From positions 3,184 to 67,183 of the forward strand of contig JAFZXK010000006.1 of assembly GCA_017616785.1 (NCBI GenBank): 64,000 nt of DNA, written 5' to 3'. Below are positions 3,298-5,216 of the stretch, piece by piece. Position numbers and translations under genes: made by a program. This DNA is from Alphaproteobacteria bacterium. GTDB taxonomy: Bacteria > Pseudomonadota > Alphaproteobacteria > Rs-D84. Every line of letters begins with the position of its first letter. Within the stretch, counting starts at the first letter, position 1. The notes under the pieces were generated by a model that saw nothing but the letters and a program-made list of their open reading frames with translations, made no database searches and was not told where the DNA came from.

Positions 3298-4035
3298 ATG
3301 TTTAATTTGACCGGACTTGATTATGCATATGTTGGAATACTGCTCGCGTCGACTGTGTGGGCGACGATACGTGGTGGAATTTATGAAACCATCGCAACGT
3401 TGTCTTGGGTTGTGGCGGCGGTAACCGCGCGGTTCGTGTCACCGATGCTTGATAAATTGCTCCAAGGTTGGTTCGGTTTGCCCGAATCAACCGTGGGAAC
3501 ATTGGTCGCATCGTATTTCATTGTGTTTTTCGTTATATTGCTGATTGTTGGATTCTTTAATCAGAAACTGCGCGACCGAATTCAGGCAAGTGTGATGAGT
3601 GTTACCGATCACACACTTGGCGTAATCTTTGGAATTGTTCGCGGCGTTGTTGTCATGGGCGTTTTCTATTGGGTCGCGCTGTGGTATTTTTCCGACACAC
3701 CGCGCACGCCGGCATGGTTGACGGATGCGCGGACGCGCCCTGTGATGCAGGTAACGGCATTAAAGTTAGATGAATGGTTTATCCCCGGTGCAACAAGCAA
3801 ACTGTTGTTGCGCGATATAGAAAGTGCACATGAGGCGCAAAAGATATTTGATAATCTGATAAATCCGCGCGTGGTTGATGATTCGGCAAAATCAACAAAT
3901 GGCACACAGGGCAATAGCGAAGAAACCGGTTACAAAAGTTCTGAACGCGGCGCATTGGAAAACCAATTATTGCAAATAGAAAATGTTGCGAACGCGGTTG
4001 AACAGCGGGAAAAAGAACGCCAGGAAAATAACTAA
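3298..4035 (+). CDS. cvpA: CvpA-family integral membrane protein
   Basis: The ORF is 245 aa. It has four predicted N-terminal TM segments with a CvpA-like start (LDYAYVGILLAS...IRG) and a hydrophilic tail. Confidence 0.65.
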   Translation: MFNLTGLDYAYVGILLASTVWATIRGGIYETIATLSWVVAAVTARFVSPMLDKLLQGWFGLPESTVGTLVASYFIVFFVILLIVGFFNQKLRDRIQASVMSVTDHTLGVIFGIVRGVVVMGVFYWVALWYFSDTPRTPAWLTDARTRPVMQVTALKLDEWFIPGATSKLLLRDIESAHEAQKIFDNLINPRVVDDSAKSTNGTQGNSEETGYKSSERGALENQLLQIENVANAVEQREKERQENN

Positions 4036-4040
4036 AACAA

Positions 4041-4069
4041 AACGGAATCAAAAAGGTTCCGTTTTTTTT
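4041..4069 (+). terminator. Rho-independent terminator after cvpA
   Basis: The stem is AACGGAA/TTCCGTT, followed by T8. Confidence 0.75.
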
Positions 4070-4096
4070 ATTGTATGCAATCCGCCTATTTATATT

Positions 4097-4352
4097 TTGA
4101 CTTTTTTCATGTTTCCATGTAAAGTTTTACATGAATCCAAGAGATTGGGTTCGGGGCTGTGGTAAGCCCGTGAATTCGGTGCGAAAGCATCGTCAAATGG
4201 TTATCACGGTGTTTTTCGCACCGTTGATTTCCCCGAGTATGTCGGGGAGTCGTGGTTATAAAACAGGGGGCAACCCCGAAATCCGCGAAATCAATAATTC
4301 ACTGATTACCAACTCCCCGACCGTCAATCTTTTGGCGGTCGAATTTTTTAAC
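4097..4352 (+). promoter_or_regulatory. Candidate promoter plus ~225-nt structured leader ending in an intrinsic terminator (copy 1 of a two-member family)
   Basis: The promoter is TTGACT-17 nt-TAAAGT. There is a perfect 10-bp hairpin at 4177-4186/4214-4223. Hairpin 4231-4236/4242-4247 competes with a 10-bp helix at 4241-4250/4312-4321. The terminator is 4319-4325/4334-4340 plus a T-run. Sequence blocks are shared with 21113-21345. Confidence 0.5.
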
Positions 4353-4366
4353 AAAAAGGAGTAAAA

Positions 4367-4720
4367 ATGATAACGTTAACACGAAAAAACGGTGGTTTTT
4401 GGAATACAACCGTTGTAATAAATGATGAATATAGTGTTAAATTAGGCGGACACGAAAGCAAGCAAGTGGAATTATCAGAAGATATAACAGAATTGGATAT
4501 AGATGTGTCAATGTCTGATACACGTGGAACATTTAAAATAAAAAATGCGAAAAAAGTAAAAGAAATTATTTTTAAATTAAAAATGTGGGGATTTGTCTTT
4601 GCTGGAACATCGCCAGATATAGTTTGTACGGTTATTTTTGAGGATGGGTCAGAAATGGAACCGCTAAATAAGAAGACAGGTACCGAAGTTAATGCCAATG
4701 TAAATCGTATGAAATTTTGA
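4367..4720 (+). CDS. Hypothetical protein (117 aa)
   Basis: The ORF has an AAAAAGGAG RBS 6 nt upstream. I recognise no motif. It is AT-rich relative to its neighbours. Confidence 0.55.
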   Translation: MITLTRKNGGFWNTTVVINDEYSVKLGGHESKQVELSEDITELDIDVSMSDTRGTFKIKNAKKVKEIIFKLKMWGFVFAGTSPDIVCTVIFEDGSEMEPLNKKTGTEVNANVNRMKF

Positions 4721-4740
4721 TAATACTATGGGAGTTTTTT

Positions 4741-4989
4741 ATGAATTATCAAATTGATCAAAAAATTAATCAAAATACCTTAACAATGTTTTTGTCTTTG
4801 TTCGGTTTGGGGTGTGCCGAATATCTGTCTTTATCCTACACCATATGGATATTATGTCTAATGACAAGTTGTATATCTATATTGTCTGTCTTTATTTGTT
4901 TAATTGCATACACATATTGTTATTGCATACTTAAATATAAGAAACCAAAAGAGACAAGAAAACAATCAAATCAAAACGGAATCAAATGA
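4741..4989 (+). CDS. Hypothetical small membrane protein (82 aa, two hydrophobic segments)
   Basis: The ATG at 4741 is preceded by GGGAG. Hydrophobic stretches are LTMFLSLFGLGCAEYLSL and ILCLMTSCISILSVFICLIAY. The stop codon lies inside a terminator hairpin. Confidence 0.45.
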   Translation: MNYQIDQKINQNTLTMFLSLFGLGCAEYLSLSYTIWILCLMTSCISILSVFICLIAYTYCYCILKYKKPKETRKQSNQNGIK

Positions 4990-5001
4990 TTCCGTTTTTT
5001 T
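4975..5001 (+). terminator. Rho-independent terminator, a near-duplicate of the one at 4041-4069
   Basis: The stem is AACGGAATC/GATTCCGTT, followed by T7. Confidence 0.7.
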
Positions 5002-5140
5002 GTCCGCCTGCGCTGGTTCTTAAATTTGGATTAATAAATCATTTGTTTTTGATAAATTATTTTCGATATACGCGCAAGCTACGGCGCGACACTGAAATTT
5101 TTTAAGCCCGCACTTTGTTGTGCGGGCTAACAAAATTTCG
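5002..5140. repeat. ~139-bp module abutting the 3' end of tRNA-Thr; paralog at 20533-20669
   Basis: It aligns by eye at roughly 80 percent identity with the sequence abutting tRNA-Leu. It includes the hairpin AGCCCGCAC/GTGCGGGCT, which serves as the tRNA terminator on the minus strand. Confidence 0.8.
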
Positions 5141-5216
5141 TGGTGCCAGTTGTCGGACTTGAACCAACGACCCTCTGATTACAAATCAGATGCTCTACCA
5201 ACTGAGCTAAACTGGC
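5141..5216 (-). tRNA. tRNA-Thr (anticodon UGU), CCA encoded
   Basis: The reverse complement GCCAGTTTAGCTCAGTTGGTAGAGCATCTGATTTGTAATCAGAGGGTCGTTGGTTCAAGTCCGACAACTGGCACCA folds as a cloverleaf with anticodon loop TTTGTAA. Confidence 0.95.

Follow-up and report, generated by a model that had tools for sequence, protein, structure and literature searches.

A double-pseudoknotted leader RNA family related to sRNA-Xcc1, a candidate transcription attenuator of gut Alphaproteobacteria

Results

Two copies of a structured leader RNA

The stretch of DNA analyzed here, called the window throughout, comprises 64,000 nucleotides (nt) of an alphaproteobacterial contig (GenBank assembly GCA_017616785.1, JAFZXK010000006.1, positions 3,184 to 67,183 of the forward strand) and carries exactly two copies (nhmmer, and cmsearch with default filters) of a structured leader RNA of ~215 nt, the parts of which are collected in Table 1. 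Both copies start 6-7 nt after the -10 box of a sigma-70-type promoter and end in an intrinsic terminator, a GC-rich hairpin followed directly by a U-run, as do their relatives family-wide; because the ribosome-binding site (RBS) and ATG of the next gene follow within ~20 nt of the T-run, the downstream open reading frames (ORFs) have no room for a promoter of their own and depend on read-through. Copy 1 precedes a 117-aa ORF, 3' of which lies a membrane-like 82-aa ORF (4741-4989), and copy 2 precedes two ORFs, one with a signal peptide and transmembrane (TM) segments and one secreted.

The original prediction, made from the letters of the window, had interpreted copy 1 as a densely structured leader with competing helices, similar in appearance to a riboswitch or attenuator, and copy 2 as its paralogue. 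The parts that it named were all found in place, namely the promoter, the TGAATC situated 12 nt after the first -10 base in both copies, the 10-bp stem now included in hairpin H1, the hairpin CCCCGA/TCGGGG (4231-4236/4242-4247), the long-range helix, and the terminator with its T-run, overlapping that helix by GAC(C). Dense structure is borne out by minimum free energy (MFE) z-scores of -7.5 for copy 1 and -3.6 for copy 2 against shuffled sequence, and true paralogy by a covariance model built from relatives, which copy 1 matches with 208.1 bits (E = 2.7e-58, cmsearch) and copy 2 with 96.4 bits (E = 1.1e-25, cmsearch). Two of the five sequence blocks listed as shared by the copies, AATCCGCGAAAT and CTGATTACC, occupy non-homologous positions and are coincidental; the truly shared blocks are the 5' hairpin, GGGCUGUnnnARGCC, GGUCGGGGWG, GGAAUCA, UGAUU, and AACWCCCCGACC. 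Absent from that account were the two pseudoknot helices P2 and P3, which covary best of all, and the similarity to sRNA-Xcc1, both described below.

Table 1. Parts of the leader RNA element. Coordinates are window positions on the + strand; columns are those of the family consensus.
Feature	Copy 1	Copy 2	Consensus columns	Description
Sigma-70-type promoter	4097-4125	21090-21118		Copy 1: -35 TTGACT 4097-4102, spacer 17 nt, -10 TAAAGT 4120-4125; copy 2: TTTACA, spacer 17 nt, TG-TATAAT, 11/12 consensus matches, extended -10
Leader RNA	4132-4348	21125-21342		Predicted transcription start (TGAATC) to terminator T-run; same architecture in copy 2
P0	4133-4152	21126-21147	2-10:15-23	Hairpin at extreme 5' end, GAAUCCAA/UUGGGUUC, loop GAGA; 9 pairs 92-100% canonical, compensatory changes
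P1a	4154-4169	21149-21164	25-28:37-40	Small hairpin GGGC/GCCC; loop 8 nt, UGUGGUAA
P2	4160-4165/4306-4311	21155-21160/21299-21304	31-36:179-184	UGGUAA (P1a loop)/UUACCA (bases following conserved UGAUU); pseudoknot with P1a
P3	4170-4176/4296-4302	21166-21172/21288-21294	42-48:168-174	GUGAAUU/AAUUCAC; all four Watson-Crick types, 98-100% paired
H1	4177-4223		49-62:81-94	Long hairpin including CGGUGCGAAA/UUUCGCACCG (4177-4186/4214-4223); 14 pairs 83-99% canonical
Segment A	4231-4237			CCCCGAG; pairs with B (local hairpin H2); putative anti-antiterminator
Segment B	4241-4250	21242-21251		GUCGGGGAGU; partner A or C
A:B			102-108:114-120	Local hairpin
H3	4251-4287		123-130:154-160 and 140-142:147-149	Hairpin with conserved internal loops UAUAAAACA and GAAA(U/G) and inner stem-loop; covaries
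H4	4288-4307		160-165:175-180	AAAUCA 4288-4293 : UGAUU 4303-4307; loop is the P3 3' arm
Segment C	4312-4321	21306-21315		ACUCCCCGAC; pairs with B; GAC(C) common to terminator stem base
Long-range helix B:C	4241-4250/4312-4321		113-122:186-195	GTCGGGGAGT/ACTCCCCGAC, 10 bp; putative antiterminator
sRNA-Xcc1-like three-way-junction domain	4241-4329			Closing helix B:C, H3, H4
Intrinsic terminator	4318-4349	21314-21335	192-200:205-213	CGACCGUCAA/UUGGCGGUCG (stem 4318-4341), then T-run; 192-195 common to B:C; core 91-100% canonical
RBS and first ORF, copy 1	4358-4720			RBS GGAG 4358-4361; 117-aa ORF 4367-4720
Cargo, copy 2		21360-22539		119-aa ORF (signal peptide, TM segments) 21360-21719; 269-aa secreted ORF 21730-22539

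A family of at least 220 relatives

Relatives were sought from a starting set of ruminant-gut metagenome contigs whose L33 protein or 117-aa protein is exactly that of the window. These contigs stem from close strains, some of which carry RNA variants with differing yet still complementary paired segments. A DNA pattern made from these variants, with GGGGWG, TGATT, AAC, and WCCCCGRC fixed, was scanned against viral contigs, metagenomes, and species-representative genomes, and listed at least 120 metagenome and at least 119 genome stretches, so that all family counts are lower bounds. Among the matches listed, nhmmer confirmed 110 of 120 metagenome loci and 114 of 119 genome loci, the negatives belonging to other phyla, and three matches in viral contigs were true. 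The further homologs that the original prediction had proposed looking for thus number at least 220 true relatives (256 nhmmer matches in 244 loci), with at least 171 distinct full-length sequences in 143 clusters at 85% identity. Positive genomes among the matches listed are metagenome-assembled genomes (MAGs) that carry the label Candidatus Enterousia, Alphaproteobacteria, Rickettsiales, or Parvibaculaceae. They were obtained from the guts of ruminants, humans, horses, mice, and termites, and four or more copies of the RNA occur in several of them. A full member (128.9 bits) was also seen on a contig labelled Bacteroides fragilis (CAVGNU010000003.1, 4409-4640 of locus L209); the other true matches listed being alphaproteobacterial, this contig is probably mis-binned.

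Scans of Rfam 15 covered the window, both copies, and 20 related loci. No family reached its gathering score on either copy, and the gathering and permissive scans together found no riboswitch, T-box, c4, put, EAR, 6S, tmRNA, or ribozyme family, returning just tRNAs and sub-threshold matches to sRNA-Xcc1 (RF02221). That the window element belongs to a true structured leader RNA family, not present in Rfam 15 as such, is well supported.

Conserved fold with two pseudoknots

With a covariance model built from 10 members, 110 matches were aligned (alignment A4), and a mutual-information (MI-APC) scan of this alignment, which assumed no structure, recovered P3, P2, B:C, P0, H3, H1, and the terminator, the pair registers being set by per-pair counts. 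Over the 70 pairs of the state containing A:B, 95.3% of cells are canonical compared with 80.5% after shuffling, changes on both sides occur in 58 of the pairs, and the covariation score is 0.439, against 0.185 for shuffles (reached by 0 of 500) and 0.04-0.07 for slid controls. The strongest signal is that of the seven pairs of P3, with mutual information of up to 1.7 bits, and the top MI-APC pairs in P2 (32-183, 33-182, and 34-181) likewise include all four Watson-Crick types (95-98% canonical). In P1a, columns 27-38 are GC in 92 members and AU in 9, and columns 28-37 are CG in 90, UG in 9, and UA in 4. The H4 pairs (R-U, U-A, and C-G) are 92-99% canonical and compensated, as AUUCAA/UUGAAU, in L210, one of the pattern-independent copies, by which we mean second copies that lie in the retrieved loci but escape the search pattern. 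These data support a double-pseudoknotted family fold, and because G-U pairs are frequent across the family, the constraint acts on RNA read from the window's strand. Nucleotides at unpaired junction and loop positions are also strongly conserved (U31, A151, A152, U163, C164, A184, and A185, with U31 and A184 lying within P2). A GGGG/CCCC helix of the MFE fold ('P1', Z:C) and a Z:A pairing were rejected, since a change of column 27 to A is compensated by its P1a partner and not by C or A.

Upstream of the RNA, 98 of 107 members have TAnnnT at -12/-11, counted from RNA position 1, and 61 of 107 have TTGnnn at -35/-34. These promoter boxes are neither separated nor flanked by conserved sequence across members, so that conservation spans just the predicted transcription start to the terminator. 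This extent bears on the possibility that the region is a small protein gene or a repeat acting at the level of DNA, for instance the end of a mobile element or an att site. Copy 1 is indeed open for 77 codons from an ATG (4131-4364), a frame that a metagenome gene caller annotated in a related locus (L012 2765-2998), and the modules containing the RNA behave as indels with TTATT at both junctions. However, an open run of at least 65 codons is present in only 19 of 107 members, with lengths spread evenly modulo 3, the compensatory changes with many G-U pairs point to RNA from this strand, and the conserved part begins and ends exactly with the predicted transcript; we give this explanation a negligible probability. 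The 77-codon ORF, whose frame is not conserved family-wide, is an incidental, spurious gene call.

Two further features of the fold were observed. H1 consists of two similar units, CGGUGC-GAAA-GCAUCG-UUA and CGGUG-UUUUU-GCACCG-UUAU (window 4177-4223; columns 49-94), the first arm of which can pair either locally, in a GNRA-capped hairpin (S1:S2), or with the last arm, in the long hairpin, and the substitutions fit both; the two-unit H1 could be a protein site or a second switch. Columns 29 (P1a loop) and 161 (H4 5' strand), which lie outside the described helices, covary (UA 84, CG 9, UG 6) and may form a tertiary pair.

Competing pairings of segment B

Segment B, which reads GGUCGGGGWG family-wide, pairs either locally with A or over 10 bp with the distant C. 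Of 103 members, 102 have the A:B hairpin, which shows compensatory changes and is weakened by a G-U pair in about half of the members. In B:C, the W-W pair is AU in 67 members and UA in 35, with just four other combinations, although the search pattern permitted any W/W, and two pattern-independent copies are fully compensated (GGGUAU/AUACCC in L255 and GGGAAG/CUUCCC in L210); in L159, all three of A, B, and C are changed jointly (CCCUGCG/CGCGGGG/CCCCGCG). The last four bases of C, GACC (columns 192-195), form at the same time the four basal terminator pairs by the U-tract. Median energies are -10.8 kcal/mol for A:B, -18.5 for B:C, -12.5 for the full terminator, and -5.2 for the terminator deprived of GACC. 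The three-helix logic of sequestor, antiterminator, and terminator that the original prediction had seen in the window thus has conserved and covarying counterparts throughout, and appears, from the sequence patterns, to be a property of the whole family.

The balance between the state with B:C (ON, read-through) and that with A:B and the full terminator (OFF) was estimated by constrained folds, in which the 3' part was folded with the P2 and P3 strands blocked. The median difference (ON-OFF) is +1.9 kcal/mol, 47% of members fall within 3 kcal/mol, and copy 2 favours ON by 4.0 kcal/mol; the two states are thus predicted to be roughly equal in energy family-wide.

Relationship to sRNA-Xcc1

Copy 1 matches RF02221 with 25.5 bits (E = 0.024), short of the gathering score of 53, and copy 2 gives no match up to E = 10. 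The best of the 20 related loci score 46.4, 45.7, 40.3, 37.5, and 32.6 bits, all below 53, and L050, when searched by itself, gives E = 1.8e-7. The assertion of the original prediction that the element fits no known class thus stands for riboswitches, as judged from Rfam, whereas its 3' half is related, below threshold, to sRNA-Xcc1. This half (B to C, ~90 nt) aligns end to end with model positions 1-87 and shares with the known RNA a GC-rich closing helix (GUCGGGGAG/CUCCCCGAC here, GUCGGGAGU/ACUCCCGAC in a true member), a hairpin with AUAMAAYA 5' and GAA 3' internal loops (H3, aligned to the AUACAAUA/GAA hairpin of RF02221), and a second hairpin, after which comes a short linker that stops ahead of the closing helix. 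The three-way junction of RF02221 is therefore reproduced, and its helices B:C, H3, and H4 are each backed by covariation or compensated variants. Further common features are a U-run at the end, a position upstream of co-oriented genes on variable or mobile DNA, and several copies per genome.

The differences are equally distinct. The leader family adds a 5' domain of ~110 nt (P0, P1a, H1, and A), which is joined by base pairing to the second hairpin's loop through P3 and to the linker through P2; its closing helix has a competitor, A; and GACC is common to this helix and a separate terminator hairpin. Whereas sRNA-Xcc1 was detected as an 88-nt sRNA (PMC2996969), the promoter here places the start of the transcript ~110 nt upstream of B rather than at the closing helix. 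The taxa differ as well, being gut Alphaproteobacteria for the leader family and beta/gamma-Proteobacteria and Desulfovibrionales for true sRNA-Xcc1. Short RNA forms lacking the 5' domain (P0, P1a, the P3 5' arm, and H1), with A, B, a reduced H3, H4, C, and the terminator retained, were observed in six loci (L031, L059, L066, L101, L113, and L131) and are, by their sequences, apparent intermediates between the leader family and minimal sRNA-Xcc1.

On plasmids of Pseudomonas aeruginosa and Nitratidesulfovibrio vulgaris, two true sRNA-Xcc1 members were examined, with scores of 72.6 and 69.7 bits. These members (L271 2482-2572 and L272 2498-2580; plasmids NZ_CP116247.1 and NZ_CP093017.1) lie 40-50 nt upstream of co-oriented coding sequences, one for a hypothetical protein and one for a BRO family protein, and the closing helix of the L271 member runs straight into a U-rich run, whereas that of the other does not. 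This suggests that known sRNA-Xcc1, besides being a free sRNA, forms a terminated leader too. Elsewhere it is found upstream of an ORF6N protein in APSE phages (10.1101/2020.03.17.996009), and Xylella contains seven copies, five of them in tandem ~385 nt apart, and transcripts of homologues have been detected both in its cells and in vesicles (PMC12189769). A literature search on Enterousia/RF32 RNA motifs or structured RNA upstream of symE gave nothing beyond the sRNA-Xcc1 papers.

Downstream genes and gain or loss of the module

A same-strand ORF follows the RNA in 220 of 238 instances, its start lying a median of 25 nt downstream. The 220 proteins fall into 112 clusters, and 141 of them are signal-peptide-like. 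Pfam matches of cluster representatives include outer-membrane beta-barrels, Opacity porins, the YadA anchor, and BspA repeats; glycosyltransferase families 2, 4, 6, 8, and 9; and EcoRI-type and C-5 DNA methylases, Mrr endonuclease, and UvrD helicase. Most representatives have no Pfam match, and the four cargo proteins of the window match nothing in Pfam, PADLOC, or PHROGs. Within 4 kb of the RNA copies, no conserved partner protein gene was found, only the cargo being enriched. The cargo set resembles the regulons of second-messenger riboswitches or of RfaH/LoaP-type antitermination, unlike a metabolic pathway. The largest cargo cluster, with 61 of the 220 proteins, is secreted, with a signal peptide and a representative that has no Pfam match (e.g., L154 5039-6682 and L031 344-1273), and related downstream neighbour clusters have a common N-terminal 'ATSKxYVD'-like motif; the cluster may be a lineage-specific family of surface fibres or adhesins.

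The nature of these genes recalls factor-dependent antitermination leaders (such as lambda nut, HK022 put, EAR, and those of LoaP/RfaH), in which the RNA recruits a protein or acts on RNA polymerase so that nearby and later terminators are ignored. With its outer-membrane proteins, adhesins, glycosyltransferases of the lipopolysaccharide type, and acquired genes, the cargo resembles RfaH-, UpxY-, and LoaP-type regulons, the terminator immediately behind the element recalls phage antitermination modules, some copies are carried by viral contigs, and the two similar conserved units of H1 could suit a dimeric protein. However, the neighbourhood yielded no conserved regulator gene, Rfam gave no match to put, EAR, or another known antitermination RNA, the window operons have just two genes each, whereas processive antitermination usually serves long operons, and the built-in competition among A:B, B:C, and the terminator already explains read-through; an antitermination leader is a rather remote prospect.

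A part of the cargo is defence-related (Mrr, methylases, and UvrD helicase), and the order of strong promoter, structured RNA, terminator, and read-through-dependent gene resembles the type III toxin-antitoxin system ToxI/ToxN, in which an antitoxin RNA precedes the toxin. Moreover, the most widespread integron cassette of Xanthomonas has sRNA-Xcc1 upstream of symE (10.1101/2025.06.18.660453). Nevertheless, a role in a toxin-antitoxin or abortive-infection module is very unlikely, as the alignments contain none of the tandem repeats (~34-36 nt) of type III systems, the downstream proteins are mainly secreted or membrane proteins, unrelated to ToxN-like endoribonucleases and to each other, and those of the window have no PADLOC match.

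Comparison of strain contigs revealed that the RNA and the genes behind it come and go together. Strain contig L006 lacks the entire copy 2 module, with TTATT at both junctions (window 21070-22716; L006 1440-1450), and the module is a clean insertion relative to this contig. It consists of the promoter and RNA, two ORFs of 119 and 269 aa, and a tail rich in GC and hairpins (inverted repeat 22563-22602 and hairpin 22635-22653). At the same site, after rpmG, L005 and L007 have a different secreted-protein gene.

The element might alternatively be a stand-alone, trans-acting small RNA (sRNA), in which case the abundant ~215-nt transcript would act elsewhere and the downstream gene would be expressed by incidental leakage. 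Its discrete promoter-to-terminator unit, its several copies per genome, and the transcripts reported for sRNA-Xcc1 (~88 nt, PMC2996969; cells and vesicles of Xylella, PMC12189769) are consistent with such a role, but 220 of 238 copies are followed so closely by an ORF that no promoter fits in between and the genes need read-through, RNA and cargo move as a single module, the hypervariable segments of P2 and P3 pair intramolecularly and hence are not free seed regions, and the true sRNA-Xcc1 members also precede co-oriented coding sequences. We therefore consider a trans-acting sRNA unlikely.

Discussion

We interpret the region as a cis-acting, effector-responsive transcription-attenuator leader RNA, a reading to which we would give, on the sequence evidence, a probability of roughly 0.55. 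In the predicted mechanism, the sigma-70 promoter of the element would start transcription at the conserved GAAUC, and the first ~215 nt would fold into P0, P1a, the P2 and P3 pseudoknots, H1, and the three-way junction of H3, H4, and B:C, the part homologous to sRNA-Xcc1, with the P1a loop and the strand after it paired to the 3' region through P2 and P3. Upon formation of A:B, the terminator would fold fully, most transcripts would stop as the ~215-nt RNA, and the downstream gene would be off, whereas upon formation of B:C, the four basal terminator pairs beside the U-tract would be lost and the polymerase would read into the RBS and ORF ~20 nt further on. The balance between A:B and B:C would be set by an effector, which, to judge from the gene set, is most likely a global signal such as a second messenger, a protein being possible as well. 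The 3' strand (columns 168-195), which would pair successively in P3, H4, P2, and with B, could form one long stacked spine that the terminator must peel off.

Several points weigh against this reading. In the constrained folds, copy 1 favours OFF by 7.9 kcal/mol (a nested model, which cannot score pseudoknots); the apparent invariance at positions fixed by the search pattern is partly ascertainment; the evidence for B:C consists mostly of one free pair and a few pattern-independent copies; and the title of Chen et al. 2011, as cited in 10.1101/2020.03.17.996009, calls sRNA-Xcc1 a trans-acting sRNA. The riboswitch- or attenuator-like appearance described in the original prediction holds as regards the leader position and the conserved, covarying competition, whereas the regulated genes are very diverse and point to no metabolite, and ligand sensing stays putative. 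The switching itself, with its direction and effector, is deduced from sequence. In addition, B:C crosses P3, so that all the helices might belong to one static fold, with A:B a mere folding intermediate.

This last point leads to a constitutive, non-switching leader, the stable 5' structure of which would protect the mRNA, while a fixed leaky terminator would keep acquired genes low and A:B would arise only co-transcriptionally. Diverse accessory, 'moron'-like cargo with no common pathway and copies on viral contigs would be understandable in such a case, and, since P2 also crosses P1a, the alternative states could be an artefact of nested-structure modelling. Yet the strongly conserved unpaired junction and loop nucleotides, the covariation of A with B, as good as that of C, the systematic weakening of A:B by G-U in about half of the members, and the closeness of the ON and OFF energies are not what a static leader would lead one to expect, and a stabilizer plus a terminator would not require ~70 conserved pairs; we regard it as improbable.

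The attenuator reading is worth comparing with known systems. A conserved, covarying structured domain lies in the 5' leader, and, as in terminator/antiterminator riboswitches, a large pseudoknotted fold is combined with helices predicted to be mutually exclusive, including an intrinsic terminator. Second-messenger riboswitches (c-di-GMP-I/II and 2'3'-/3'3'-cGAMP) likewise occur in several copies per genome, in front of heterogeneous surface- and secreted-protein genes, and in phage DNA. Riboswitch classes usually vary in their expression platform, however, whereas the platform here is uniform and fused to the conserved core. In the c4 antisense RNA of phages P1 and P7 (immI leader), two short segments, variable yet complementary, pair further along the same transcript. 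In contrast to c4, to which there is no Rfam match, the complementary segments here are both inside the leader and leave the RBS uncovered, and the predicted control is exerted at the terminator instead of the translation of the downstream ORF. The window element is best filed as an extended variant of the sRNA-Xcc1 kind, with regulated attenuation as a strong candidate function. If it is an attenuator, a family of at least 220 members with ~70 covarying pairs would control the most variable genes of gut Alphaproteobacteria and their phages.

More tentatively, we speculate that the family represents a novel kind of attenuator that senses an effector, in the most exciting case a riboswitch for a global or second-messenger-type signal, and governs variable surface, envelope-glycosylation, restriction-modification, and phage 'moron' genes, with sRNA-Xcc1 as its minimal cis-acting version and P2 and P3 serving self-addressing. 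Should this be true, one RNA-level control would extend over the whole variable gene set of uncultured gut Alphaproteobacteria; sRNA-Xcc1 on integron cassettes, plasmids, and phages would be a minimal cis-acting device and not a trans-acting sRNA; and the fast-changing, self-complementary 'address' helices P2 and P3 would keep each copy self-folding among many paralogues. A concrete and testable function is thereby offered for sRNA-Xcc1, a family that has been without a mechanism since 2010 and occurs widely in plant and animal pathogens, on their integron cassettes, plasmids, and prophages. Both the A/B/C/terminator design and the self-addressed helices of the pseudoknots are open to direct mutational tests.

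Some observations concern the surroundings of individual copies. On the viral contig L025, the RNA precedes a lipoprotein gene beside phage late and lysis genes. On L026 (IMGVR_UViG_3300029904_000303), genes for a helix-turn-helix protein and a 324-aa reverse transcriptase (RT; 3449-4746) lie directly upstream of an RNA copy (4879-5104). This RT, of retron type VI (PADLOC RT_VI, E = 1.3e-74), is the sole one near any copy, and a link of the element to a retron ncRNA (msr-msd) and RT was rejected, as no RT is enriched near the other copies and that of L026 belongs to a separate type VI retron, which looks like an unrelated neighbouring defence system. Two strain copies (L014 2765-2981 and L011 2770-2981) are identical to the window in P0 and in the 117-aa protein and nearly so in the terminator, L014 also having the promoter of copy 1 and L011 differing in upstream context and promoter. 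Their RNAs diverge strongly from that of the window in P2, P3, distal H1, and H3, with every change compensated, a pattern that appears to reflect either recombination among paralogues or diversifying selection acting on the paired 'address' segments. Finally, each RNA-plus-cargo module of the window lies within ~0.5 kb of a tRNA gene on the - strand (5144-5216 and 20673-20754), and the gene content near both tRNA sites varies among strains, L011, for example, having a Mrr-like endonuclease and three extra ORFs; these tRNA-adjacent sites may be hotspots of gene gain and loss.

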